From positions 393 to 64,392 of the forward strand of contig CALVQK010000009.1 of assembly GCA_944358305.1 (NCBI GenBank): a DNA stretch of 64,000 nt, written 5' to 3'. This DNA comes from an uncultured Bacilli bacterium. GTDB taxonomy: Bacteria > Bacillota_I > Bacilli_A > RF39 > UBA660. Position numbers and translations under genes: made by a program. Positions 13,947 through 64,000 of this stretch are shown piece by piece. How positions within the stretch are numbered: the stretch's first letter is position 1; the number at the start of each line of letters is the position of its first letter. Below the pieces are notes generated by a model, which searched no databases, was not told the origin of the DNA, and saw only the letters and a program-made list of their open reading frames with translations.

Positions 13947-14020
13947 GCGGATGTAGTTTAATGGTAGAACCTCAGCCTTCCAAGCTGACTACGGGAGTTC
14001 GATTCTCCTCATCCGCTCCA
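13947..14020 (+). tRNA. tRNA-Gly (anticodon UCC)
   Basis: 74 nt folded by hand into a cloverleaf: acceptor gcggatg/catccgc, D arm, anticodon stem tcagc/gctga with loop cTTCCaa, T arm ggagt-tcgattc-tcctc, and an encoded CCA. Confidence 0.9.
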
Positions 14021-32703: not shown

Positions 32704-32767
32704 GCTTCCCTCTTTATGTTGATTATATAGAAAAACTAAAATTAATGCAATATAATGAAAAAGATGG

Positions 32768-35044
32768 CTACCAAGAGCCACCTCCTCCACCTCCAGAACC
32801 TCCACCACTGCTTCCTCCACCAGATGAAGAACCACCTGATGAAGATGATGATGGACTAGAAGACATTACAGATTGTGCCGAAGTCAATGTAGAACTCATA
32901 AATGAACCAAAAGTCACAACACTAAAAGTATTAGGGCTATCATACCATGATGGAGCCTGTAAATTTATTGACTCAAATTTTTTAATCCATTTATCAGATA
33001 CTCCTAAAACATAAGTAAATGGTAAAATATCATAAAAATATGTTGGATGTTCCAAAACCATTGCCTCTAATTTATCTTTTTCTGCTGTTTCTAAAAAGTT
33101 TTTAAATCCTCTTAATTTACCTAACAATTGATTACCATATGTCGTCCTTTTTGGCATTAATTTAAAACATATTATCATTCCAATTAAACATAAAATTCCT
33201 ACTATAAAAGCAATCAAATAAAGAGAATCTGTTGTAATAGCATCTGCTAGAGGTAACGTACTAAAGAAAACAGAAGAATGAAAAACTGTAAATCCTAACC
33301 ATATAATTCTAAACAATAAAGGTATTTTTGCAAATATACCAACAGCATAAAAGGGAATATAAAAGGCACAAATAAACAAAGTCATTCCAAGAGATGCAAA
33401 ACCTGCATATTCAATTGTTGGCACAGCAATAGTTGTTATTATTGAAATAAGCATTAATAAAATAATTATTATAGACTTGATAGATGTACTCTTTTCAAAT
33501 ATTTTATTTTTATTTTCTTTATTATTTATATTAGATAATATCTTATGAGTTGTAACATAAAAACTATCATATAAATCAGTTGATGTTACTTCATCTTCTT
33601 TCACTGCTTTTTTAAATAATCCACTTAAAAACAATCTTTCATTAGCATTATTACCATCATATTCTTTTAATTTAGTTATCTTAAAATTATTTGTCTTTGT
33701 AAATAAAGACTTCTCTTCACATTCAGATATTTTAATATAACCTTTATTAGCTAAATATATTAATAAAGAAGTTACATCCTGACTATCAGCTTTTCCCTTA
33801 TATAAAAATCCTACTTCTAAACTATTAAAACCTTCTGGCGGATAAAATTCTACTGTCTCTACAACTTGATTATCCCGACCAAAGATAAACCATAATATTA
33901 AAGAAACTAATAATGATACTACTGGTATAATAAACATTAAATAAAGCATAGGATTAACATCAAGTCCTGCCCCTACAAAATATCCTTCAGGAAGTTCACA
34001 TCTAACCGTCAATGCTTCCCCTGCATCAAGAATACCATTATAACTTCCATGTATTTCATTACCATCTACTGTATATTCAATATTACTACTATCAGTAGAA
34101 CCTACACTGCCAGCAGAAAATCCTAATTTAGTTGCATCAAACTCTTTAGGCATTGTTATATCAAAAGTCACATTACCTATTACTGTATCCCACTCACTAC
34201 CTATAATATTGTAATATAATTCATCATAATCACTAACAGGATCTTTACCCAAATTATAAGTATATTTAATTGTATAAGTCTGTTTTCCTGTTAAAGTACG
34301 ACTAGCTGAACCTATCTGTATTTTATAATTACCATCTTCTCTTGACGTAGTATACTCTTCACTGACACTCAAATCAGTAACCTGAGTTCTATTAGTAGAA
34401 GTACTTCCATCAAGTCTTACTATTTTATTACTTAAAGGAATAGTTCTAAATATTCCATGCTTTGGAATATTAAAATAAGCAGTTATTGTCTCAGTTATAT
34501 CAAAAGTATTATTCTCATTTACAATAATATTAACATCATAATTATCAATAACATAATCATACGTACTATACAAACTATTTTCACTAGGTATATTACTATT
34601 AAAAATTAATTCATCATCATTAACATCAACAATTAATCTATAATACTTTATATCATTAGTACTATATTCCCCCAATACATCTAAATTAAACATTAAGTTA
34701 AAATCATTTGAACCAATTGAAGCAATATTAGAACTATCCGCTTCTGCTATTAAGTTATATCCTTCATCATAAAAATAAACATTTGCACTATAAGTTATGG
34801 AACTATTAGAATTATTAACAACTTCTCCAGTTAAACCAAAAGCCATAGTTGAAGTATCAGAATAATCTTCAAATGTAATATTAGAAAAAGATAATTCTCT
34901 AACATCTAAATTCTTAACATCATTTATATCAGTATAAGATATCTCTCCACTTATAGCATTAGTATTCAAAGGATAAATACAAACTATAGACATTATAGTA
35001 ACTAAAATTATCTTTCTAATAATATTTTTCATTTTATCCTCCAT
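32768..35044 (-). CDS. DUF2207-family membrane protein (signal peptide, large extracytoplasmic domain, multi-TM region, Gly/Ser-rich C-terminal tail)
   Basis: 758 aa with an N-terminal signal peptide, and several TM helices in the C-terminal third. It ends …SSSSGGSSSGGGSSGGGSGGGGGGSW. It is immediately downstream of LemA, the classic LemA-DUF2207 pairing. Confidence 0.65.
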   Translation of the reverse strand: MEDKMKNIIRKIILVTIMSIVCIYPLNTNAISGEISYTDINDVKNLDVRELSFSNITFEDYSDTSTMAFGLTGEVVNNSNSSITYSANVYFYDEGYNLIAEADSSNIASIGSNDFNLMFNLDVLGEYSTNDIKYYRLIVDVNDDELIFNSNIPSENSLYSTYDYVIDNYDVNIIVNENNTFDITETITAYFNIPKHGIFRTIPLSNKIVRLDGSTSTNRTQVTDLSVSEEYTTSREDGNYKIQIGSASRTLTGKQTYTIKYTYNLGKDPVSDYDELYYNIIGSEWDTVIGNVTFDITMPKEFDATKLGFSAGSVGSTDSSNIEYTVDGNEIHGSYNGILDAGEALTVRCELPEGYFVGAGLDVNPMLYLMFIIPVVSLLVSLILWFIFGRDNQVVETVEFYPPEGFNSLEVGFLYKGKADSQDVTSLLIYLANKGYIKISECEEKSLFTKTNNFKITKLKEYDGNNANERLFLSGLFKKAVKEDEVTSTDLYDSFYVTTHKILSNINNKENKNKIFEKSTSIKSIIIILLMLISIITTIAVPTIEYAGFASLGMTLFICAFYIPFYAVGIFAKIPLLFRIIWLGFTVFHSSVFFSTLPLADAITTDSLYLIAFIVGILCLIGMIICFKLMPKRTTYGNQLLGKLRGFKNFLETAEKDKLEAMVLEHPTYFYDILPFTYVLGVSDKWIKKFESINLQAPSWYDSPNTFSVVTFGSFMSSTLTSAQSVMSSSPSSSSSGGSSSGGGSSGGGSGGGGGGSW

Positions 35045-43527: not shown

Positions 43528-45405
43528 TTATTGCAATGCAATCTCAAATGGATCTTCTTTTGTTCCATCGCCAGATGTTATTATAACGTTTGATTTTAGA
43601 TTTATGGATGGACGGACACCGTTCGCGAGCGAATGAGTGCCGTAGTCCGCAGCACCATCGCTGTACACGCGACGCACGCCAGACGTACTATATGGTGTTA
43701 AGGTCCAATAAATTGTTGTTAATCCAGTACTAGTACTTCCACCCTTTACTGCATATCTTTCGAATTGTCCTGCCATTAATTCACCCATACGAAGTAAACC
43801 TACTTTGGCACTTGTAGTAGACATAGTTGCACTGCTCATAGAAGTATCTGTATACTTAGCTAACTTGTATGAAGTACCATTACTTACTGTTCCTAAATAC
43901 CATGTCGTACTTTCTTCTATCATATCACTATAATCATTACCTAGATAACTTGTTAAATATTCTCCATTTAAGAACGTTCCTATAGTATTACTACTTGAAA
44001 ACGTTGTATTACTTCCAAAAGCACTTATTATAAATTCTCCTGAACTCTTTAATGGCTCGACACTGGTTATCTTAGTTAACCCTGGCGTTTCGTGACTTAC
44101 TATGCGATATAGATTATTTTCATTATTTCCAAATCTTATATATTCTCCACTATATCTTGTATTCAATAAAGTGCCTGATAAACTATTATCATTGTCTCCT
44201 TCTAAGCGATAGGGATTTTCTTCTGTTCCATCACCATCTACAATTTTAACATTAGATTTTAGATTTATTGATGGACGGACACCGATCGCGTCCGAAGGGT
44301 TGTAGATGTCCGTATAACCATCACTGCTCACGTCACGCACGTAAGACGTACTATATGGTGTTAAGGTCCACCAATAAAGTCCATTATTTAAATAGCCATT
44401 ACTATAGGTTGTTCCATAATAACTAGATTGATATTCATACATATTAAGTAATCCTACGGCAGAAGTTACTGATGTTGACTCATCTGGTCTTGTTATACTT
44501 CCTAACTCTCTATTATCTTGAGTGGCATCCCACCTAGCATCAGTTACTATAAAGTTTTCATAATTTCTTAAATTACCAAGGAAACCATCTACTGTTGTAT
44601 CGTTTAACCACTCTTCCATATAACTTCCTGCAAAATCTGTACTACCACTTGAATAATTAATTGCACTTATATTCCATTGAGTTACTAATTTAACTGTCTT
44701 TGCTTCATTATTAACAGACACCGCTCTCCATAATTTACCACTATACCATATATAATTATTTGGATCTTCTCCTGTTATAAAAGTAGCAACCCCATCATCA
44801 TATTGGTTTTCTTCTGGAATATTATCAAGTAATACTGTTCCAGCTTCTTTCGCTCTTTCTTGAGACACTTCTACTCTTAAAACTCCGCTAAATACTTGTC
44901 CTCCATAATTACCATCTACTTCATCTGTTATCCACAAGTTTAAACTATATGTATTAGTTTCTCCTCCTGCTATGGTTCCACTATCTAACACTCTATTTGA
45001 ATTAGCACCTATTATAGTAAGTAAAGTTGCGCCACTGTTCTTTCCATTTTTATTTAAATTATATTTTAAATACATATCATCTATTCTGGTATCTGCATCA
45101 CCAATAGTGTTATCATCTAAATAAATAGTATAATCTACTGGCTTATCACCATTATTTCTTAATTCAAATGTTGATGGTGTTAAATTCATACCATCTTCAT
45201 CACTTAGTCCTATAGCATTATCTAAAGTTATGCCTTCACTTGTTTCATTTAAGACTAGTTCTAATTCTCCTACTTTTACTATTTGATCCGATCCGTTTAA
45301 ACGAGTAGAAAAGTAAGCATAACTTATTGCAATAATCAATATTATTATTATCAATATACTTATTACTAAAGTAATTATCTTCTTCTTTTTATTATCTTTC
45401 TTCAT
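43528..45405 (-). CDS. secreted TasA/camelysin-like N-domain protein, paralogue 1, with two C-type variable cassette modules
   Basis: Signal peptide with an AxA-type cleavage site. The mature N-terminus and following region (VKVGELELVLNETSEG…) match the TasA pattern (GTLDLSAKEN…). The conserved core is DDGVATFITGEDPNNYIWYSGKLWRAVSVN. The module WWTLTPYS-[variable]-GVRPSINLKSNV occurs twice (internal and C-terminal). Confidence 0.6.
   Translation of the reverse strand: MKKDNKKKKIITLVISILIIIILIIAISYAYFSTRLNGSDQIVKVGELELVLNETSEGITLDNAIGLSDEDGMNLTPSTFELRNNGDKPVDYTIYLDDNTIGDADTRIDDMYLKYNLNKNGKNSGATLLTIIGANSNRVLDSGTIAGGETNTYSLNLWITDEVDGNYGGQVFSGVLRVEVSQERAKEAGTVLLDNIPEENQYDDGVATFITGEDPNNYIWYSGKLWRAVSVNNEAKTVKLVTQWNISAINYSSGSTDFAGSYMEEWLNDTTVDGFLGNLRNYENFIVTDARWDATQDNRELGSITRPDESTSVTSAVGLLNMYEYQSSYYGTTYSNGYLNNGLYWWTLTPYSTSYVRDVSSDGYTDIYNPSDAIGVRPSINLKSNVKIVDGDGTEENPYRLEGDNDNSLSGTLLNTRYSGEYIRFGNNENNLYRIVSHETPGLTKITSVEPLKSSGEFIISAFGSNTTFSSSNTIGTFLNGEYLTSYLGNDYSDMIEESTTWYLGTVSNGTSYKLAKYTDTSMSSATMSTTSAKVGLLRMGELMAGQFERYAVKGGSTSTGLTTIYWTLTPYSTSGVRRVYSDGAADYGTHSLANGVRPSINLKSNVIITSGDGTKEDPFEIALQ
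43612..43688 (-). other. GC-rich, A-depleted hypervariable cassette A (C-terminal module of paralogue 1)
   Basis: Encodes SGVRRVYSDGAADYGTHSLAN with codons GGC GTG CGT CGC GTG TAC AGC … TCG CTC GCG AAC. GC is roughly 60% against an AT-rich gene background. It is sharply bounded by the conserved AT-rich ccatatagt (PYS) and ccatccataaatctaaaa (PSINLK). Confidence 0.6.
44275..44351 (-). other. GC-rich hypervariable cassette B (internal module of paralogue 1)
   Basis: Encodes STSYVRDVSSDGYTDIYNPSDAI. It is co-linear with cassette A at DNA level, with differences almost entirely in codon positions 1-2 of NNC codons. Confidence 0.6.
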
Positions 45406-45418
45406 TATTTACTCCTTT

Positions 45419-47326
45419 CTACTCTGATAAAGCAATTATAAATGGATTTTCTTTGGTACCTGTTCCTGATGTTATTATGACATTTGATTTTAGATTCATG
45501 GATGGTCGAGCCCCGAGCGAATAACTCGAAGGTGAATAGTAATAAGCATTACCACTGCCGCCGACACACCAAACACTCGACGAACTATATGGTGTTAAAA
45601 TCCAATAAGATATTGTTAATCCTGTACTAGATGTTCCTCCCTTTACCGCATATCTTTCAAATTGTCCTGACATTAATTCTCCAAATCTCAATAACCCTAC
45701 TTTAGCTTCCGCTACATTTGAGGTTGTTGCAGTTCCACTTGCATCTGTATATTTTGCATTCTTATATGAGTAGGAACTACCGCTTCCTACAGTTCCAAGG
45801 TACCATGTAGTACTATCTTCTATCATATTAGCATAAATACTATCTACATAGTTTGTTAGATATTCTCCATTTAAAAATGTATCTACTGTATTTGTACTTG
45901 AGAATGTTGTATTACTTCCAAAATTCATTGTTATAAATGTACCAGAACTTTTTAGTGATTCGGCACTGACTATCTTTGTTCCTGTTCCATTTTCGTGGCT
46001 TACTATTCTGTATAAATTATTTTCATCATTTCCAAATTTTATATATTCTCCACTGTATCTACTTGATAACAATGTTCCTGAAAGGTTAGTATCATTATCT
46101 CCGTTTAAGCGATAAGGATTATCTATTGTTCCATCACCATCTACAATACGAACACTAGATTTTAGATTTATAGATGGCCGAGCCCCGTACACATAGCCCG
46201 AAGGCGAATAGTAGAATGCAAGACCATTGTAGTTGACATTCCGAACACTTGACGAACTATATGGGGTTAAAGTCCACCAATAAAGTCCATTATTTAAATA
46301 ACCATTACTATAGGTTGTTCCTCTATAACTTGATTGATACTCATACATATTTAAAAGCCCTACTGCATCTGTTACTATCATACCATCGTCCCTTGGTCTT
46401 GTTATGCTTCCTAAATCAGTAGCATCCATTGTCGCATTCCACTTAGCATCTGTTACAATAAAGTTTTCGTAATCTCTTAAATTACCTAAGAAACCATCTA
46501 CACTGGTATCATTTAACCACTCTTCCATATAACTTTCTTCAAAAGCTGTATTCCCACTTGCATTATAAGAAATAGCACTTATATTCCATTGTGTTACTAA
46601 TTTAGTTGTTCCTGCTTCCTTATTAACAGACACTGCTCTCCATAACTTTCCACTATACCATATATAATTATCTGGATTTTCTCCTGTTATAAAGGTATCT
46701 ATTCCATCATCATACTTATTTTCTTCAGGAATATTTTCAAGTAATACTGTACTTGCCTCTTCTCCTACACTTTGACTTCCTACTACTCTTAACTTTCCTT
46801 TAAAGACTTTGCCACTAGCTTCTTCAGTAGTTGCATCATAGTCTATCCAGATTCTTAAGGTATAATTAATAGTTTCATCAGGTGCGATTGTTCCAAAGTC
46901 TACTCTTCTATTAGGATTACTTCCCATAGTTGTCATATTTCTAGTCATAAATGTTTCATCATTTCTTGTTAGACTATATCTTATACTAGAGTCTGGGATT
47001 CTACTTTCTCCTTCACTTAACTCTATATCATCTAAGTAGATTGTATAATCTGTATCTATCTTTCCATTATTTACTATACTAAAGTTAAAACCATTAAGAT
47101 TCATTCCTTCATTATCTGAAAGTGGTATTTGTTTCTCTAAAGTAAGTTCATTTCCTTCTTCTAATACTAAATCAAGAGTTCCTACTCTTACCAAATATTC
47201 TTTATCTCCTTGTAGTGTTGTTGTTAGGTAAGCGAATGCTATTCCTATTAAAAGAAGAATTATTATTACAAGCCCTATTATTATATATTTCTTATTTTTC
47301 TTTATTGCTTCTTTCATTACATTCAC
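45419..47326 (-). CDS. secreted TasA/camelysin-like N-domain protein, paralogue 2, with two variable cassette modules
   Basis: Same architecture as 43528..45405, with high protein identity in the conserved regions and 13 nt intergenic. Confidence 0.6.
   Translation of the reverse strand: MNVMKEAIKKNKKYIIIGLVIIILLLIGIAFAYLTTTLQGDKEYLVRVGTLDLVLEEGNELTLEKQIPLSDNEGMNLNGFNFSIVNNGKIDTDYTIYLDDIELSEGESRIPDSSIRYSLTRNDETFMTRNMTTMGSNPNRRVDFGTIAPDETINYTLRIWIDYDATTEEASGKVFKGKLRVVGSQSVGEEASTVLLENIPEENKYDDGIDTFITGENPDNYIWYSGKLWRAVSVNKEAGTTKLVTQWNISAISYNASGNTAFEESYMEEWLNDTSVDGFLGNLRDYENFIVTDAKWNATMDATDLGSITRPRDDGMIVTDAVGLLNMYEYQSSYRGTTYSNGYLNNGLYWWTLTPYSSSSVRNVNYNGLAFYYSPSGYVYGARPSINLKSSVRIVDGDGTIDNPYRLNGDNDTNLSGTLLSSRYSGEYIKFGNDENNLYRIVSHENGTGTKIVSAESLKSSGTFITMNFGSNTTFSSTNTVDTFLNGEYLTNYVDSIYANMIEDSTTWYLGTVGSGSSYSYKNAKYTDASGTATTSNVAEAKVGLLRFGELMSGQFERYAVKGGTSSTGLTISYWILTPYSSSSVWCVGGSGNAYYYSPSSYSLGARPSMNLKSNVIITSGTGTKENPFIIALSE
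45506..45586 (-). other. GC-rich hypervariable cassette C (C-terminal module of paralogue 2)
   Basis: Encodes SSSSVWCVGGSGNAYYYSPSSYSLGA. TCG, GGC and CTC GGG GCT CGA codons sit inside an AT-rich gene. Confidence 0.55.
46178..46258 (-). other. GC-rich hypervariable cassette D (internal module of paralogue 2)
   Basis: Encodes SSSSVRNVNYNGLAFYYSPSGYVYGA. It is co-linear with cassette C. Confidence 0.55.
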
Positions 47327-49123
47327 CTACCTTATTGTTGCTACTAAACGGAAAGCATCATTTCTACTATTACCCCCAACAGCACTATTACTAATTTCAA
47401 AATTAAAAATTCCCGCTTCAATACTATAATTATAAATTCCTCCACGTAATTGCCATGGGTATTGTTCTCTTACTAAACCACGATAATCACTATACCAATT
47501 ATTAGTCTCGTATAAAGCATGGCTCAAACATTCATTTCCACTACAAGCTGTTAACATGTTATCAGTTGTATATTTATCATAATATTTTGAGTCAGGCATA
47601 GAAGAAAAACCACTATCTGCAATTAAATCATTATAATTTGCCATTGTATATTCATGAGCACCACCACTCATATCATATATCCCATAGATATTTCCAGTAG
47701 TAGATGCGCCTGTTCCATTTATATCTACATTATATTGATATTGACATCCATAATCTGTGCTATCATTACTTGGAGCACCATAACTACAGCCTGTTATAAA
47801 TTGATCTGATTTGTTTTGATATATTTCTTTATTCGTTCCACTAAAGTCTTCATTACCTAACTTTCCATATTTAGATTGAGATAGATATGCAACTATTCCC
47901 CATTCACTATTCTTCATCATATGCGTATCTGTTGTACTCTCTATCCCATATCTATTACCCGCATTATTCATCTTTAAACTCACATTAAAAGCATTACTTA
48001 CATTTATATTTCTCCAACTAAAGGCATTAGGCTTTATAATTACATCCAAATTAGCAGTATTGCCACCACCATCTACTTCACTTGGATCACTACTACTTGT
48101 CTCAAACTTTCCTACCCAGATTCCTCTTAACTCTTCATCTCCAAATGTAAAAGCAGCTGGTGTATACCAACTATCATCACTTATTCCTTCACTTACTATG
48201 TATTTTGCACTTCCTCTATCTTTTGTATTTTCACTAACAAACTTTACATCTATTTCTCCTGGTAGTGCTTGGGTTGGAGTTGTATCTAAATAGGTTCCTT
48301 GTTTTCCATAATAGTTTGTCCCATCTTCACTTCCTATTGTATATGAATATCTTGGTATCCATACCCACATTGTCTCTATATCATCCATATTTACTACTGT
48401 TCCTACACTTGCATTCTTATATGCACTTCTTGTTGATTCTGATACTGTTACAGCATTTGCCCACATCAACTCTTCATAATTATACCAACTATTATTTATA
48501 TTTGTTCTATCTGCTTTTACCCAGTTACTTCCATCATAACTTACTGGTATCATTCCTTCATCTAACATTGGTGCATTTGGACTATTCTGTTCTCTATCAT
48601 AACTTGTTACTACTATCTTACTTTGATATATTGTTCCTTGTGCCTCATTCCCTGCATCCTCATCTAACCACATATACAAAGTATATGTTACTGTATCGCT
48701 TGGCTCTAATACATCTTCTCCTATTATTTCAAAAGAACCTATCCCATAATCACTTACTCTTATTACTCCACTATCATAGCCATTATTTCCTGTTATTTTC
48801 ATCTTTAAATTTGAATTACTTAATGTATTATTACTATCTTCTTCTAATGATACATGGTAATAAGCATTTATATTTCCTGTATTTGTTACTGTAAAAGTAT
48901 AAGGAGTTGTTTGTAGACCTTCTTTATCAGACATAGGAGCGCTATTTTCTATACTTATATTATCACCTTCACTAAAATCAACTTTTAATATTCCTGCTGT
49001 TAGTGTTATTTCTTTATCTCCTTCTATAGTCATAGTTAATAAGGCATAACTTGCACCTATTAATGCTAACACACTTATTAATATTATTACTACTGATATT
49101 ACTATATATTTTTTCTTTGTCAT
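47327..49123 (-). CDS. secreted TasA/camelysin-like N-domain protein, paralogue 3 (divergent C-terminal half, no variable cassette)
   Basis: N-terminal …ITLTAGILKVDFSEGDNISIENSAPMSDKEGLQTTPYTFTVTNTGNI… aligns to TasA (…TFASGTLDLSAKENSASVNLSNLKPGDKLTKDFQFENNGSL…). The C-terminal half is unrelated to the modules in the other paralogues. There is 0 nt intergenic to the upstream gene. Confidence 0.55.
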   Translation of the reverse strand: MTKKKYIVISVVIILISVLALIGASYALLTMTIEGDKEITLTAGILKVDFSEGDNISIENSAPMSDKEGLQTTPYTFTVTNTGNINAYYHVSLEEDSNNTLSNSNLKMKITGNNGYDSGVIRVSDYGIGSFEIIGEDVLEPSDTVTYTLYMWLDEDAGNEAQGTIYQSKIVVTSYDREQNSPNAPMLDEGMIPVSYDGSNWVKADRTNINNSWYNYEELMWANAVTVSESTRSAYKNASVGTVVNMDDIETMWVWIPRYSYTIGSEDGTNYYGKQGTYLDTTPTQALPGEIDVKFVSENTKDRGSAKYIVSEGISDDSWYTPAAFTFGDEELRGIWVGKFETSSSDPSEVDGGGNTANLDVIIKPNAFSWRNINVSNAFNVSLKMNNAGNRYGIESTTDTHMMKNSEWGIVAYLSQSKYGKLGNEDFSGTNKEIYQNKSDQFITGCSYGAPSNDSTDYGCQYQYNVDINGTGASTTGNIYGIYDMSGGAHEYTMANYNDLIADSGFSSMPDSKYYDKYTTDNMLTACSGNECLSHALYETNNWYSDYRGLVREQYPWQLRGGIYNYSIEAGIFNFEISNSAVGGNSRNDAFRLVATIR

Positions 49124-56006: not shown

Positions 56007-57911
56007 TTATTGAAGATCAATCTCAAACGGATCTGATTTAGTACCTGTACCAGAAATTATCACCACGTTAGATTTTAAATTCATAGAAGGTCGCACCCCG
56101 AACGCTCTGGTCTGATCGATGCCGTACGTGCCACCATTGTAGTAGACACCACACACGCGAGACGTACTATATGGGGTTAATGTCCAGTATGTTGTATTAT
56201 TACCATATCTATCAAATTGTCCTGACATTAATTCTCCCAAGCGAAGTAAACCTACCTTTGCTTCTGTAGTTGTTGAAGTTGTACTACTCATATTAATATC
56301 CGTATATTTTGCTAGTTTATATGATGTACCACTTCCCACAGTTCCTAAATACCATGTAGTACTCTCTTCTATCATATCCGTATATGCACTATCTACATAA
56401 CTTATCAGATATTCTCCATTTAAGAATGTTCCTATCGTTGTACTACTTGAAAATATTACATTACTTCCAAAAGTACTTGTTATGAATGTACCAGAATTTT
56501 TTAGTGGTGTTGCGCTTACGATTTTTGTCCCCGTTCCATTTTCTTGACTTACTATTCTATATAGATTGTTTTCGTCATTTCCAAATCTTATATATTCCCC
56601 ACTGTATCTACTTGACAACAATGTTCCTGAAAGATTAGTATCATTATCTCCATTTAAGCGATAAGGGTTATCTATTGTTCCATCGCCATCTACAATACGA
56701 ACGCTAGACTTTAAATTTATAGATGGGCGAACCCCGAGCGCGGTGGACGAATTGAGGGTATTTGGGGTACCATTGTCGACGACATAACGCAAGACAGACG
56801 AACTGGCTGGTGTTAATGTCCACCAATCAGAGCCATTATTTAAATAACCAAAGCTATCAGGTCTTCCCGTATAACTTGTCTGCTGATATTCATACATATT
56901 AAGTAATCCTACAGCATCTATTACTACTGTACCATCATCACTAGGCCTTTCCATCTCTCCTAAAAAAGTTGAATCCGTTGTTGCATTCCATTTAGCATCT
57001 GTTACAATAAAGTTCTCATAATCTCTTAAATTACCTAAAAAACCATCTACACTTGTATCATTTAACCAGTCTTCCATGTAACTTCCTTCAAAAACTGTAT
57101 TTCCACTTGCATTATATGGAATTGCACTTATATGCCATTGAGTTACTAACTTTGTTGTTCCTGCTTCATTATTTACTGATACTGCTCTCCATAGCTTTCC
57201 ACTATACCAAATATAGTTATTAGGGTCTTCTCCTGTTATAAAGGTATCTACCCCATCATCATAAGTACTTCCGCTAGTTAAATTCTCTATTACTGTCTCT
57301 CCTGCTGTTGGTGGTTTGTCTCCACTTTTACCATAAACATTTACTTGTATCGTAAATTGTAATCCTCCTCCATCTCCTTGAGGATTATATCCTTCATCTA
57401 CATACATTCTAAGTCTATAATTATTACTTTCACTACTTGTCATACTAGATGTATATAAACTCATCTCTCTTGAAGGACGCCCTGTGTATGTATTTTCTGT
57501 TGTCTCTTCATTATATGTCTCAGGACTCATTAACTGTTCTTCGCCCGTCTCTGTTAATCTTGTTAGATATAACTTTATATTAGATCCATCTATTGTCCCT
57601 TCCCCTACTTCTTTAGCACTTATTTCATAGTTGATATTTACATCACCTGTTATTTCACTACTTACTGTAAAATCAAAATATTCTCCTGGATTTAATCTTA
57701 CCATTCCTGTTTCATCTGCTGTTGGTAACGCTCCATTTAAACTTATTGTATTACTTTTTTCTTCATATGTCATTGTTATTGATCCTGTTGTTATAGTATT
57801 TGGTGTATTACCTGCTCTACTAAAACTAAACGCTGCAAAGCTTACTCCTATTATTGCCAGTAGCATTACAACTAATATAACTATTATTACTATATTTTCT
57901 TTCTTCTTCAT
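56007..57911 (-). CDS. secreted TasA/camelysin-like N-domain protein, paralogue 4, with two variable cassette modules
   Basis: Same domain order as the 43.5-47.3 kb paralogues (signal peptide; TasA-like ITTGSITMTYEE…; core DDGVDTFITGEDPNNYIWYSGKLWRAVSVN; two WTLTP…G[VA]RPS[IM]NLKS modules). Confidence 0.6.
   Translation of the reverse strand: MKKKENIVIIVILVVMLLAIIGVSFAAFSFSRAGNTPNTITTGSITMTYEEKSNTISLNGALPTADETGMVRLNPGEYFDFTVSSEITGDVNINYEISAKEVGEGTIDGSNIKLYLTRLTETGEEQLMSPETYNEETTENTYTGRPSREMSLYTSSMTSSESNNYRLRMYVDEGYNPQGDGGGLQFTIQVNVYGKSGDKPPTAGETVIENLTSGSTYDDGVDTFITGEDPNNYIWYSGKLWRAVSVNNEAGTTKLVTQWHISAIPYNASGNTVFEGSYMEDWLNDTSVDGFLGNLRDYENFIVTDAKWNATTDSTFLGEMERPSDDGTVVIDAVGLLNMYEYQQTSYTGRPDSFGYLNNGSDWWTLTPASSSVLRYVVDNGTPNTLNSSTALGVRPSINLKSSVRIVDGDGTIDNPYRLNGDNDTNLSGTLLSSRYSGEYIRFGNDENNLYRIVSQENGTGTKIVSATPLKNSGTFITSTFGSNVIFSSSTTIGTFLNGEYLISYVDSAYTDMIEESTTWYLGTVGSGTSYKLAKYTDINMSSTTSTTTEAKVGLLRLGELMSGQFDRYGNNTTYWTLTPYSTSRVCGVYYNGGTYGIDQTRAFGVRPSMNLKSNVVIISGTGTKSDPFEIDLQ
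56091..56168 (-). other. GC-rich hypervariable cassette E (C-terminal module of paralogue 4)
   Basis: Encodes SRVCGVYYNGGTYGIDQTRAFGV with CGC GTG TGT GGT GTC TAC TAC … GCG TTC GGG GTG CGA codons. Confidence 0.55.
56727..56808 (-). other. GC-rich hypervariable cassette F (internal module of paralogue 4)
   Basis: Encodes SSSVLRYVVDNGTPNTLNSSTALGV. GTC GTC GAC … ACC GCG CTC GGG GTT CGC codons. Confidence 0.55.
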
Positions 57912-58986: not shown

Positions 58987-61900
58987 TTATCTTGACTTTA
59001 TTAAAGACTTATTTCTATAAGAAATATACATCAAAATGCCACCTATTAATATTAAAATTCCACCAGTTAAATAAATATATGTAGCATTACTTCCTGTGTT
59101 TGGTACTTCTATAGGTTTAGAATTAAACATAACTGCACTTTGAATATCACCAGTTTCTAACACTTCAAAATCAACAACAGAAGTATTTAAAACATAACCA
59201 TCTGGGGAAATTGTTTCAATTAATGAATAATTTCCTACTGGAAGTTTTTCTATATAATGTGGTGTATCAGTAGAAGTCCACTCATCAACAACTTCTCCAT
59301 TACTATTTATTATTACTAAATGAGCACCTTCTACTTCTTCACTATTAGCAATATCAAGTTTACTTATCTTTACTTTTGTAAAATCATTAACATAATTTAT
59401 TATATCTACATTATTACTATTACTTACACTAAAATATATTGGATTATTATTAATAATTACCCCTTCTGGTACTCCCGTTTGTTTTAATACATAATCCCCT
59501 AAAGCTAATTCACTACTAGTATAGACATCTTCCGTAGTTGTAAACTCATCTATTACTTCTCCATTAGTTGTTTCTAATCTATAACTATAATCACTAATAC
59601 CATTAGTATCTACTGTTAAAACTCTATTATTAACACTTATTGTAGTTATATCATTACTTATATTAACAGTTTGTACTTCTCCAGACTCTAATACTCTAAA
59701 AGTTATAATAGATCCTGTTCCCACATATCCTGCAGGTGCTTCTAACTCAGTTAAACTATATATACCTGGAGTTAATCTTTTAACTACATAAGGACTATTA
59801 GTACTAACAAAAGTAATTGGCTCCATTATACCATCTTCTCGTGCTAATCTCATCGTCGCTCCACTTATATATTCCCCTGTTCTTGCATCTATTTTGCCTA
59901 AGTTTACTGTAATAGGCCTATTTCTTATAACAAGATCATAATTAGGATTATCATCACTAATAGTTACTTCATATCTAGTATTATCTACTATATAACCATT
60001 AGGAGCTTCTAATTCTCTTACATAATATGTACCTTCACTCAAATTACTAAGAGTATGAGCAGTTTCCGTAGTCCTAAATGTTTCTATTACTTCATTACCA
60101 TCACTAATTTCTAACAATGCTCCACTAACCGCTTCTCCTGTTTCACTATCTATTTTTCTTATCGTTAAACCACCTGTCGTATTAGAAATAGTATAAACAG
60201 AAGAAGAGCTATTAGATGAATTAAAGTTTATCTCTACTACCTCATCAGTTTTAATATAACCGGCTGGTGCTTCAACTTCTTCTAAATAATAAGTACCATA
60301 AGAAAGGCCTTCTATTACATAAGGAGCATTACTAGTAGTAAATGTTTCAACTTCTTCTCCATCACTATCTGTAAGTCTTAATCTTGCTCCAGAAACATAG
60401 GAACCACTACTAGCATCTACTTTGCCTAAGTTTAATTTTGTTTTTTCATTCTCTATAACTACTTGAATATTAGTAGTATTTTGATCTACTACAAAACTTT
60501 CTCTATTACTTAAAGGAACATAACCATCTGGAGCAACTAACTCTTCTACATAATAAGTACCAGGATCTAACCTATCAATAGTATAAGGACTATCAGTAGT
60601 TGTAAATGTATCAATAACTGAACCACTGCTATTAGTTATTCTAAGTCTTGCTCCACTTATTGCCTCTCTTGTATCTTTATCAACTTTACTAATAGTTATT
60701 TGATTATTAGAATTATAGAAAGTAACAGTCTTAGCTTCCGTTTCATTACCACTTATATTGAAGGTAACTTCACTATTACTTAAAGTATAACCATCTGGAG
60801 CTTCCACTTCTATTACTTTATAATCCCCTGGTTCTAAACCATTAACTCTATGAGCACTACTACCACTAGTCCATTCATCTATAACTTGATTATCAGATAC
60901 TCTTATTAACCTTAAAACTGCTCCACTAACAAAATTATTATTACTAGCATCTCTTTTCTCTATCAATACTTCATTTAACTCATCCCAAAAGTCAACAGTT
61001 ACCATAGTATGACTACTATCAACAGTAAATTCTTGTTCATTAGTGCTTAATAAATAACCAGGAGGAGCTTCTACTTCGACAACTCTATAAGTTCCTTCTG
61101 CTAGATTAGAAATACTAACATAATCATCTTCTGTTGTAACTGTATCAACTACTCTACCATCACTATCTAAAATATTTAAAACTGCTCCTGCTACTGGATC
61201 TCCTGTATCAATATCACATTTTCTTATAAGAACTTCAAAAGAAGAATTACTAAGAGTTCTACTAATATTTAAATTACTATCAGTAATAACAACACTAGTA
61301 GTAGCATTATCTATATAATAACCATCAGGTGCTTCTAATTCTCTTATTTCATATTCTCCAGGTAATAAATTAGAAATAATATGATCAGAAGTAGTAGAAG
61401 TAAATGTATCTACAACTTGATTAGTAACAACACTTCTAACTTCTATTCTTGCTCCTGCAAGAGCATTATTACTATCATCTACTTTTTTTATTGTTAAACT
61501 TCCTGTTGGCATAGTTACACTACTAGATACTGTCTTTTGTTTTGCAACTGGCATAAGTGCTGCTGCCACTGAACGTTGCATCTCTTCTGTTGGTGGTGTA
61601 TAACTATAAGCAGTATATTCTGTATAATTAACAACTACATTAATATTAACAGTTATAGGACTAGATATATTTGCAAGATTAACTCTTAATCTAAATCCTT
61701 CACTGCTATCTATTTCTCCTGTAACTACACTATTATTACTATCAACTACGGTGGCAGCACTATTATCAACACTAACTCTATAATTATCATAATCTACATT
61801 TGAATTAACAGTTATTGTATCTGTTATTAAATATCTATTATCACTACTTAAATGAAAATCACTACTATCAATACTAAAAGTTGGATTTATAGTAACTGGA

Positions 61901-62466
61901 TTATTTTTAGCATCTACTGCGCCTTCTATTAAAGGACCAATATAACGATAATAACTACTACTTTGTATAACTTCTTTTTGATGAGAAGTTAAATTACTAG
62001 TACCTGCTGTTAAATCTTGATACCACCATAATGCTATTTGCGTTAAATAATCATCATTGGCATCATTTCCTGTTAATGATTTACTAGGATAACCATTTTC
62101 TAATAAATAAATATAACCCGCATCTAACTCTTCATCACTTCTTGTAACAGTATAATTAGGGGCCCATTCTTTATGTTTATCAAGACAATAAACAGTATAT
62201 CTAGTACCACTACTAGATGTAGCATAATATGGTACTAAAGCTAATATTTCTTCATCACTAGTAAACTGTGGAAACAAATTAACTCTATCAGCATTAGTTC
62301 CCATACCTGTTGTCAAAGTATCAGGAAGCTCAGTTGGTAAAGCATAAGAAGTAACAACTGCTTTAGAAAAAAATATAACCATTACTGCCGATATTATAGT
62401 TGCTAAAGTAACCTTTAAAAGGTCATTATTACCTTTCTTAAATAGACTACCAATTTTTTTAACCAT
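58987..62466 (-). CDS. cell-wall-anchored surface adhesin with about 9 tandem Cna-B/SpaA-like (prealbumin-fold) repeats and a VPNTG sorting signal
   Basis: N-terminal signal/TM. About 90-aa repeats of the consensus …SGA.L.I..S.G.V.DTFTT…H….L.PG.Y…E.EAP.GY… The C-terminus is IEVPNTGS followed by a hydrophobic helix and a YRNKSLIKSR basic tail, a sortase-type cell-wall sorting signal with a VPNTG variant of LPXTG. Confidence 0.7.
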   Translation of the reverse strand: MVKKIGSLFKKGNNDLLKVTLATIISAVMVIFFSKAVVTSYALPTELPDTLTTGMGTNADRVNLFPQFTSDEEILALVPYYATSSSGTRYTVYCLDKHKEWAPNYTVTRSDEELDAGYIYLLENGYPSKSLTGNDANDDYLTQIALWWYQDLTAGTSNLTSHQKEVIQSSSYYRYIGPLIEGAVDAKNNPVTINPTFSIDSSDFHLSSDNRYLITDTITVNSNVDYDNYRVSVDNSAATVVDSNNSVVTGEIDSSEGFRLRVNLANISSPITVNINVVVNYTEYTAYSYTPPTEEMQRSVAAALMPVAKQKTVSSSVTMPTGSLTIKKVDDSNNALAGARIEVRSVVTNQVVDTFTSTTSDHIISNLLPGEYEIRELEAPDGYYIDNATTSVVITDSNLNISRTLSNSSFEVLIRKCDIDTGDPVAGAVLNILDSDGRVVDTVTTEDDYVSISNLAEGTYRVVEVEAPPGYLLSTNEQEFTVDSSHTMVTVDFWDELNEVLIEKRDASNNNFVSGAVLRLIRVSDNQVIDEWTSGSSAHRVNGLEPGDYKVIEVEAPDGYTLSNSEVTFNISGNETEAKTVTFYNSNNQITISKVDKDTREAISGARLRITNSSGSVIDTFTTTDSPYTIDRLDPGTYYVEELVAPDGYVPLSNRESFVVDQNTTNIQVVIENEKTKLNLGKVDASSGSYVSGARLRLTDSDGEEVETFTTSNAPYVIEGLSYGTYYLEEVEAPAGYIKTDEVVEINFNSSNSSSSVYTISNTTGGLTIRKIDSETGEAVSGALLEISDGNEVIETFRTTETAHTLSNLSEGTYYVRELEAPNGYIVDNTRYEVTISDDNPNYDLVIRNRPITVNLGKIDARTGEYISGATMRLAREDGIMEPITFVSTNSPYVVKRLTPGIYSLTELEAPAGYVGTGSIITFRVLESGEVQTVNISNDITTISVNNRVLTVDTNGISDYSYRLETTNGEVIDEFTTTEDVYTSSELALGDYVLKQTGVPEGVIINNNPIYFSVSNSNNVDIINYVNDFTKVKISKLDIANSEEVEGAHLVIINSNGEVVDEWTSTDTPHYIEKLPVGNYSLIETISPDGYVLNTSVVDFEVLETGDIQSAVMFNSKPIEVPNTGSNATYIYLTGGILILIGGILMYISYRNKSLIKSR

Positions 62467-62521: not shown

Positions 62522-64000
62522 CTATTCTTTTATTAAGCTTAAGTTAACCTTTTTATGATCTAAATCAATCTTCTCTACATAACAATCAACTATATCTCCA
62601 ACACTAAACAAATCACTAGGATTTTTAATATATCCCTTAGTTAATTTTGAAATATGAGCAAGGCCATCATTCTTTAACCCTATATCGATAAATAGACCAA
62701 AATCGACTACATTACGTACTGTTCCTTGTAGTTTATCACCAATTTTCAAATCTTCTATATGTAATATATCATTTCTCAAAATAGGTTGTGGATAATTATC
62801 TCTTAAATCCCGCATAGGTTTTTCTAAAGATTCTATAATATCTTTTAAAGTATATATATCTATATCTAATTCTTTACTAAGACTTTCTATATCTAAACTA
62901 TTTAATTTCTCACTAAGTTCCTTTTTGCCTAAATCTTCTTCACTAAAGCCTAAGTAATCTAACAAAGCATCAGTCTTAACATAACTTTCCGGATGAATTG
63001 AAGTTTTGTCTAATGGATTATCCCCATCAAGTATTCTTAAGAAACCAACTGCCTGTTCATACACTTTATCTGATATTCCTTTAATTTTATGAAGTTCTTC
63101 CCTATTTTTAAACTTACCATACTTTTCTCTAAAATCAATAATATTATCTATTACTTTTTTATTTAAACCTGATACATATTTTAGTAGTGAAGGGCTAGCT
63201 GTATTAATATTAACTCCAACTCCATTAACTGCTTTACTAACAACAAAGTTAAGTGATTCATCTAGTTTTTTAACTGGTACATCATGTTGATAAAGCCCAA
63301 CCCCTATACTTTTAGGATCTATTTTAACAAGTTCAGATAAAGCATCTTGTACTCTTCTTCCAATACTAACAGCACTTCTTTTTTCAACAGTTAATGAAGG
63401 AAACTCTTCTATGGCAAGCTTACTAGCAGAATATACTGAAGCCCCTGCTTCACTTACTATTATATAGGAAACATCCCTATCAGAAGATCTAATAGCTTCG
63501 GCCACAAAAGCTTCACTTTCCCTTGAAGCCGTACCATTTCCTATGGCAATTACATCAATATTATATTTATCAATAAGTTCAAGTAATTTCTTCTTTGAAC
63601 CTTCTATATCATTATGTGGTTCTGTTGGATAAATTACAGCAATATCTAACACTTTACCAGTTTTATCTAACACTGCAAGTTTACAACCAGTCCTAAAAGC
63701 TGGATCAAAGCCTAATACAGTTTTATCTTTTAAAGGTGGTGTTAAAAGAAGATTCTCTACATTAACAGAAAAATTATCTATCGCTCTTTCCTCACCCTTT
63801 TCTTTTAACTCACTTCTAACCTCTCTATCTACACTAGGAAATATTAAACGTTTAAGACTATCATTAATTGCATCCATAATAACAGAATAACAGAAAGACT
63901 CTTTATTTTTAATTACTTTAGACTCCAAATATGTAACTACTTTTTCTACATCATAATCTAGCTTAACAGAAAGTATTCCTTCTTTTTCTCCTCTATTAAT
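62522..64000 (-). CDS. tex: Tex-like transcription accessory protein (C-terminal about 490 aa; 5' end beyond window)
   Basis: YqgF/RNase-H-like segment (VLGFDPAFRTGCKLAVLD), an HhH region and a C-terminal S1 domain (…GDKLQGTVRNVVDFGLFIDIG…). The frame stays open to position 64000; the track's start at 63928 is an internal TTG. Confidence 0.75.
   Translation of the reverse strand: MNRGEKEGILSVKLDYDVEKVVTYLESKVIKNKESFCYSVIMDAINDSLKRLIFPSVDREVRSELKEKGEERAIDNFSVNVENLLLTPPLKDKTVLGFDPAFRTGCKLAVLDKTGKVLDIAVIYPTEPHNDIEGSKKKLLELIDKYNIDVIAIGNGTASRESEAFVAEAIRSSDRDVSYIIVSEAGASVYSASKLAIEEFPSLTVEKRSAVSIGRRVQDALSELVKIDPKSIGVGLYQHDVPVKKLDESLNFVVSKAVNGVGVNINTASPSLLKYVSGLNKKVIDNIIDFREKYGKFKNREELHKIKGISDKVYEQAVGFLRILDGDNPLDKTSIHPESYVKTDALLDYLGFSEEDLGKKELSEKLNSLDIESLSKELDIDIYTLKDIIESLEKPMRDLRDNYPQPILRNDILHIEDLKIGDKLQGTVRNVVDFGLFIDIGLKNDGLAHISKLTKGYIKNPSDLFSVGDIVDCYVEKIDLDHKKVNLSLIKE

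Follow-up and report, generated by a model that had tools for sequence, protein, structure and literature searches.

Probable retroelement-written variable regions at the ends of two tandem DUF6273 domains in a membrane-anchored protein of an uncultured gut Bacilli bacterium

Cassettes E and F of gene P4

The stretch of DNA analyzed here (the window) comprises 64,000 nucleotides of contig CALVQK010000009.1 from an uncultured Bacilli bacterium. Gene P4 (56007-57911, minus strand) encodes a 634-amino-acid membrane-anchored protein with two tandem DUF6273 domains, each closed by an 84-nt cassette on the same strand: cassette F (56724-56807) ends the N-terminal domain (P4N), and cassette E (56088-56171) ends the C-terminal domain (P4C). 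Composition, position, and family membership make it probable that both cassettes are variable regions (VRs) of a diversity-generating retroelement (DGR) within an extracellular protein and that the pair has been orphaned and is not being rewritten now. Both are of the DGR type, and both appear to be frozen.

Two further minus-strand genes in the window have the same organization. P1 (43528-45405) carries cassettes A (44272-44355) and B (43609-43692), which are built on one scaffold. P2 (45419-47326, with a likely ATG start at 47317) carries cassettes C (46175-46261) and D (45503-45589), which share a second scaffold that is one codon longer than that of P1. The proteins encoded by P1, P2, and P4 are all ∼630 amino acids long, with an N-terminal membrane helix (residues 4 to 33 of P4 in a predicted model) followed by the two domains. 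Each matched DUF6273 in Pfam (for P4, E 2.1e-9, with the best stretch at residues 265 to 402 aligned to positions 23 to 172 of the 172-position profile), and the cassette lies at the C terminus of the profile. The cassettes (84 to 87 nt) end each domain and are bounded by the conserved peptides 'W(W)TLTP' and 'G[VA]RPS[IM]NLK'. The proposal in the initial annotation that P4 repeats the two-cassette architecture of its paralogues at equivalent positions was therefore borne out. DUF6273 has been described as a C-lectin-like DGR target domain with the VR at its C terminus (PMC10743442, PMC11792537).

Composition and variability of the cassettes

The GC content of cassettes E and F is 0.56 and 0.57, respectively, compared with 0.33 to 0.34 in their flanks. 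Windows of 84 nt across this AT-rich stretch had a mean GC content of 0.274 (standard deviation, 0.062), which places both cassettes at a z score of about 5, and no background window of that length was as GC-rich. The abrupt switch to GC-rich codons that had been noted earlier is thus numerically correct, but it is really a depletion of adenine on the coding strand. Adenine accounts for 0.15 to 0.21 of the coding strand in all six cassettes (0.19 in E and 0.17 in F) versus 0.40 in the remainder of the genes, and the proportion of thymine is unchanged. Only 1 to 3 of the 28 to 29 codons in each cassette have adenine at the third position, and the codons follow an NNC/NNT pattern. Avoidance of adenine would follow from DGR mutagenesis, because scaffold positions that are kept constant must be nonadenine in the template.

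The residues found at the variable positions point in the same direction. In an alignment of 66 proteins, hypervariable columns were confined to the two cassettes except for isolated columns 1, 201, 362, and 574, and 98.6% of the 1,583 residues in hypervariable columns fell within the 15-residue set that is reachable from AAC by adenine mutagenesis. As judged from sequence, the adenine-poor composition, the NNC/NNT codons, and the residue repertoire of the family are the signature of DGR variable regions. Cassette E also includes cag and aga, two codons that adenine mutagenesis of AAC could not produce.

It is very improbable that the cassettes have nothing to do with a diversifier and instead reflect a local bias in codon usage, GC-rich inserts gained by horizontal transfer, or loops that simply evolve fast. 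The window contains neither a template nor an enzyme, as such an explanation would have it. However, adenine alone is depleted whereas thymine is not, the residue repertoire is that of AAC, both domains of each of the three genes carry an in-frame cassette at a homologous position, the phylogenies of cassettes and flanks disagree, and relatives carry a template repeat (see below).

The relationships among the six cassettes differ from those of the sequences around them. Flanks group by domain position (identities of 74 to 93% between N-terminal domains, 69 to 79% between C-terminal domains, and 45 to 59% between N- and C-terminal domains), with the exception of the upstream flank of P4C, whose identity with the other C-domain flanks is 54 to 56% and which clusters with no other flank. 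Cores instead sort by gene in P1 and P2, in which the two cassettes are 76% and 75% identical, respectively, compared with 55 to 64% across genes. In P1, for example, the cores of A and B are more similar than their flanks (57 to 59%), and 18 of their 20 differences (8, 10, and 2 at codon positions 1, 2, and 3) are at the first two positions of NNC/NNT codons. This discordance suggests that the cassettes were written independently of their flanks. The cores of E and F are 62% identical, which is the background level. A single template for all six cassettes, one possible reading of the initial annotation, is not compatible with these values.

The openings of the cassettes were as previously described, with 'agt acg tct' in P1N, P1C, and P4C (A, B, and E) and 'agt tcg tc(n)' in P2N, P2C, and P4N (C, D, and F).

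A conserved element on the 3' side of each cassette

In the degenerate form GGNGNNCGNCCNNNNATRAATYTAAAR, the element that follows the cassettes has exactly six copies in the window, one behind each cassette, where 0 would be expected by chance. This agrees with the earlier count of six variable sites in three genes. Further targets, which the initial annotation anticipated, were not found in the window, but two more cassettes are present just beyond its end (past position 64000) in a fifth family member of the same strain (L001:1401-3146, 581 amino acids). Partial decay is seen in one of these cassettes, which includes aga, ata, and atg codons.

The initial annotation had allowed that the element might simply reflect coding conservation of the peptide GVRPSINLK. 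For the family, this is not the case. The arginine codon is CGN throughout the six window cassettes and in 26 of the 27 distinct ones that were compared, as opposed to 14% in the genes of the window. The leucine of 'NLK' is the rare codon CTA in 22 of the 27 (background, 6.7%), whereas the equally invariant upstream leucine of 'WTLTP' is the common codon TTA in 25 of the 27. Third positions of the neighboring Gly, Val, Arg, and Ser codons are free to vary. From these codon choices, the element is evidently under nucleotide-level constraint across the family that goes beyond the encoded peptide.

The first half of the element (GGN GTN CGN CC) is the end of the homology with the template repeat (TR) found in relatives, and the second half lies beyond perfect homology. 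TR/VR homology stops at GGCGTGCGGC; the next bases are 'at ttc ctt tta aac cta gca' in the template and 'ca tca ata aat cta aaa' in the cassette. This divergence resembles the arrangement of the initiation of mutagenic homing (IMH) site and its counterpart IMH* that has been reported for DGRs (PMC5758913).

Both P4 cassettes have TTA at the site that is otherwise conserved as CTA. The element after cassette E (56073-56099, minus strand; GGGGTGCGACCTTCTATGAATTTAAAA) consists of the template-homologous end of the scaffold and an IMH-like tail in which TTA replaces CTA. In the element after cassette F (56709-56735, minus strand; GGGGTTCGCCCATCTATAAATTTAAAG), TTA replaces CTA and, in addition, AAG replaces AAA. 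The other TTA cases among the 27 cassettes are those of L018, an AT-decayed cassette, and L013, in which the GC content of the cassette is still 0.49. TTA is also present in the AT-rich allele that L002 carries at the position of P2, which is outside the 27-cassette table.

A GC-rich cruciform was looked for downstream of the cassettes and was not found. In the N-domain cassettes only, a weak AT-rich inverted repeat of 10 to 11 bp (CCATCTATAA … TTGTAGATGG) flanks the 3' element (56690-56731, 44238-44275, and 46141-46178); folding z scores were nonsignificant.

Template repeats in related loci

AAC-rich template repeats are present in loci of relatives. One is located at L028:12031-12109, ∼95 nt past the stop codon of the orthologous target gene (L029 has it as well), and another, at L008:12022-12100 on a 1.52-Mb contig (ERZ21564551 s19725.ctg025008c), is likewise ∼95 nt past the stop codon of a target gene. 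The repeat reads '...tcg tca AAC gtt cgg tat gtc AAC AAC AAT ggt AAC gcg AAC AAC...ggc gtg cgg' (L008 and L028/L029). When the L028 template was compared with the two cassettes of the adjacent gene, mismatches were found at 11 and 13 of the 24 adenine positions and at only 2 and 4 of the 55 nonadenine positions. The corresponding values for L008 were 10 and 7 of 21 adenine positions and 5 and 3 of 58 nonadenine positions. This adenine bias of the mismatches is the defining relationship between a DGR template and its VRs, and the template/VR pairs of these relatives are genuine.

Template openings of two kinds are found in relatives: '(a/t)ct tcg tca AAC gtt cgg' in L008 and L028 and, in truncated form, 'agt acg tct AAC gtg c' in L007. 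The two openings of the window cassettes thus correspond to two real template lineages in relatives, which upholds the suggestion of two lineages made in the initial annotation. Cassettes C and D of P2 align without gaps to the L028 template and belong to its length class, yet they are not its direct products, with mismatches at 13 and 16 of 26 adenine positions and at 12 and 14 of 58 nonadenine positions.

In L008 and L028, where the template is intact, the repeat is part of a unit of ∼360 nt (L028:11930-12320 and L008:11921-12300) that also includes a conserved upstream motif (GGCTATAATTAGTTNAAATAAATTATAGTAGGG) and a terminator-like hairpin of its own. The unit lies between the terminator hairpin of the target gene and this second hairpin, and it is ∼97% identical in L008 and L028 despite their different genomic contexts. 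No match to it was found in Rfam. What is left in L007 is the upstream motif together with a stub of 16 nt ('agt acg tct AAC gtg c'), and in L035 and L036 the motif only.

A scan of genome contigs with the A/B scaffold returned a single match, a VR of the relative L007, which is another species; the pattern had a fixed 'AG' at one codon and could miss a template with adenine at that codon. The N-masked cassette scaffolds are AGTACGTCTNNCGTGCGTNNCGTGNNC and AGTTCGTCNAGTGTTNGGNNTGTC, with the accompanying motif GGCTATAATTAGTTNAAATA. A GC-rich island at 32747-32860 was considered as a template and was ruled out; it encodes the Gly/Ser-rich C-terminal tail of a DUF2207 membrane protein and is unrelated to the cassettes.

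The family is large, with 4,860 proteins at E <= 1e-20 among 8,000 candidates scored. Relatives are labeled as an 'uncultured Tenericutes' metagenome-assembled genome (L007) and as Candidatus Onthousia, and the host is a member of the uncultured small-genome gut Bacilli. Scans of viral contigs by DNA pattern and by protein, and of phage records, found no relative of the family, and a phage origin is therefore unsupported. Searches of PDB sequences, NCBIfam, and Rfam gave no informative match.

Variation among samples and relatives

Other assemblies are 97.7 to 100% identical to the window; samples with this strain are ERZ24773364, ERZ24773486, ERZ24773376, ERZ28614372, ERZ28616297, and ERZ28615924. 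Cassettes E and F had no mismatch in four other samples (L001 to L004), and cassettes A to D had none in L005 and L006; each of the six is identical in up to four other samples, which come from two projects. Among relatives at about 90% identity, cassette E is invariant and cassette F has two alleles that differ by 6 nt and 4 amino acids. These results do not support the ongoing diversification of E and F that the earlier reading implied. In one such relative, P0002, the 3' ∼640 nt, including E, are identical to P4 while the 5' part is 10 to 25% diverged. The differences between the F alleles (P0002) are in scattered codons, with the remaining variable codons unchanged, which is unlike the product expected from fresh homing.

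Pairwise comparison of cassettes across the family was bimodal. Cassettes are identical when backbones are more than 98% identical, and at least 9 of 24 residues differ when backbone identity is below 90%, a pattern which suggests that wholesale rewriting occurs, but rarely. One pair of relatives may have been caught soon after such an event. P0134 (L033:9021-10961) and P0135 (L034:10001-11941) are 98.9% identical over 17 kb, yet one cassette carries 7 substitutions in a 17-nt segment next to the 3' boundary, all of them at positions 1 and 2 of NNC/NNT codons, which are the inferred template-adenine sites. Partial retrohoming in the recent past, with the 3' end as its anchor, would be expected to leave such a pattern.

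The flanks of P0014 and P0031 are identical over 5,970 nt, there are three patches of difference, two of which are outside the cassettes, and the C cassette of P0031 equals that of P0010.

It is possible, although rather unlikely, that the cassettes are fossil VRs on which no retroelement acts now and that they are reshuffled only by homologous recombination and gene conversion, between strains as well as between paralogues, together with point mutations that are under diversifying selection. The mosaic structure of P4 and P0002, the patches outside the cassettes and the identical C cassettes of P0031 and P0010, the scattered differences between F alleles, and the deletion or truncation of template units at several loci are all in keeping with such a history. 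However, recombination alone cannot create an AAC-type repertoire or adenine-specific mismatches between template and VR, the difference between P0134 and P0135 is restricted to 17 nt and to inferred adenine sites, and intact templates persist in L008 and L028.

The opposite possibility, that one active DGR elsewhere in the genome now diversifies all six cassettes (eight with those of the fifth member) in trans through the shared 3' element, is doubtful. For DGRs outside phages, genes with multiple VRs are documented, as are remote targets at distances of more than 100 kb from the enzyme (PMC5758913), and the synonymous conservation of the 3' element and the recent changes confined to adenine sites in relatives could be explained in this way. 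So could the fact that all six cassettes are still adenine-poor, while some relatives have decayed to a GC content of 0.32 to 0.37. Against this, at least three or four scaffolds, including one with a one-codon difference in length, would be needed; cassettes A to F are each the same in up to four other samples; the P4 elements lack the conserved CTA; and the only syntenic template site is empty, with no reverse transcriptase found in the window or in 408 kb of related loci. The initial annotation had proposed one diversifier acting on dispersed targets. A mechanism of the DGR kind and the common 3' element survive from that proposal, whereas what it implied about the coding content of the window and about the current state of P4 is not supported.

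Polymorphism between strains is concentrated at 46426-48999. All 28 mismatches of L006 are within 48000-48999, and 329 of the 413 mismatches of L002 are within 46426-48999 (313 of them in 46500-48499). Beyond 46426, L002 has a divergent P2 allele with an AT-rich cassette (GC, 0.37) that does not appear to have been written by a DGR.

Proposed history of the P4 cassettes

The favored explanation remains that E and F are DGR variable regions that are no longer rewritten. In this scheme, an RNA copy of an AAC-rich template repeat would be reverse transcribed with random misincorporation opposite template adenines, and the cDNA would replace the VR starting from the GC-rich 3' boundary (GGN GTN CGN CC) and the conserved tail (ATA AAT CTA AAA TCT). 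P1 and P2 would each have received the cassettes of both their domains from a single template, which makes two template lineages. The P4 cassettes would be older, orphaned products that are no longer rewritten in this strain, and the template and enzyme would be elsewhere in the genome or lost.

Several results weigh against this explanation. The case for a DGR origin of E and F is made from composition, position, and family membership and lacks a template match, and the two cassettes share no scaffold beyond background. Neither blastn (word size 7) nor scoring of scaffold-masked consensus sequences detected a template repeat for the A/B, C/D, or E/F scaffold in the 64-kb window. No reverse transcriptase or Avd was found in the window by a YxDD scan, Pfam searches of about 46 open reading frames, or tblastn, nor was either detected by tblastn with the reverse transcriptase and Avd of phage FP_Lagaffe in related loci totaling 408 kb, among them the 10 kb on either side of three template-bearing loci. 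The template of the relatives is the direct donor of no window cassette, given mismatches at 21 to 35% of nonadenine sites. The fifth family member of this strain is syntenic with the template locus of L028, which lies upstream of Tex, and the template unit is absent at that site here. Within clusters at 90% identity, the variation of cassettes does not exceed that of the remaining protein, and the mosaic patches outside cassettes show that ordinary gene conversion also moves cassettes. Finally, the fold was not confirmed, since the AlphaFold model, which was made from a shallow alignment, had a predicted local distance difference test score (pLDDT) of 49.4.

Neighboring genes

The gene next to P2 (47327-49123, minus strand) encodes a 598-amino-acid protein that has only the N-terminal module of ∼170 amino acids common to the family (28% identity) and no cassette. 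Its C terminus (…WQLRGG…NDAFRLV) may resemble lectin folds of the FGE type, but Pfam gave no such match. Two genes from P4 is a large LPXTG-anchored adhesin (58987-62466) with a thioester domain and nine SpaA repeats, which indicates that the neighborhood is rich in surface proteins.

A tRNA gene at 13947-14017 is followed, up to 28646, by genes for two serine recombinases, Mob_Pre, TnpV, and a relaxase, together with an AlwI restriction enzyme, a D12 methylase, and an AAA_13 ATPase; no reverse transcriptase is encoded between 13947 and 28646. These genes look like integrated mobilizable elements.

Relation to known systems

An abrupt adenine-poor cassette within an AT-rich gene marks retroelement-written diversity even when no retroelement is nearby. 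The cassettes in this window would accordingly be read as historical products and not as evidence of a diversifier encoded here. The family to which they belong, with more than 4,800 proteins in the databases, comprises cellular surface proteins of uncultured gut Bacilli with two diversified lectin-like domains each.

In the prototype DGR, the Mtd/Brt/Avd system of Bordetella phage BPP-1, template and VR differ specifically at adenines, the scaffold is of the C-lectin type, and an imperfect TR/VR repeat (IMH versus IMH*) comes after the 3' boundary. The family described here resembles it in the adenine-specific differences, in its predicted C-lectin-like domain, and in its putative IMH-like element. 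Unlike BPP-1, there is no mtd-avd-TR-brt cassette and no GC-rich cruciform downstream, and each protein has two VRs. Silent-cassette gene conversion, as in pilE/pilS and vlsE, also replaces localized cassettes and generates mosaic alleles. However, no silent donors, that is, no extra cassette copies, were found in the window, and in relatives the variation is adenine specific with respect to a noncoding template.

Among the closest known systems are the DUF6273 targets of DGRs in gut phages and prophages, such as the Tentaclins and those of Faecalibacterium prophages (PMC10743442, PMC11792537), which have the same domain, a C-terminal VR, and AAC-type variability. In contrast to those phage proteins, the proteins studied here are cellular and membrane anchored and are not phage tail proteins, have two diversified domains each, are encoded by at least 4 genes per genome, and have no reverse transcriptase or Avd adjacent.

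DGRs outside phages, such as those of Treponema denticola and Stenotrophomonas (PMC5758913), are similar in having several dispersed chromosomal targets and internal VRs, so that the IMH (here a putative one) is also translated, and in the GC-rich start of that element. All targets of those systems are served by one template beside the reverse transcriptase, whereas the cassettes in this window require several scaffolds and the template of the relatives is a separate unit of ∼360 nt that follows a target gene and has no reverse transcriptase in the surrounding 10 kb. The DGR mechanism is already known, and this detached template unit might be the one feature that is architecturally unusual. 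It is conceivable, if unlikely, that the template repeat in this clade is an autonomous unit parked behind one target gene, that a mobile element or a distant locus supplies its enzyme in trans, that several template lineages serve a multicopy family of surface proteins with double VRs, and that individual strains, this one among them, can be left with frozen receptors once the template is lost. Should the detached unit indeed work with a distant enzyme, the known DGR architectures would be extended.

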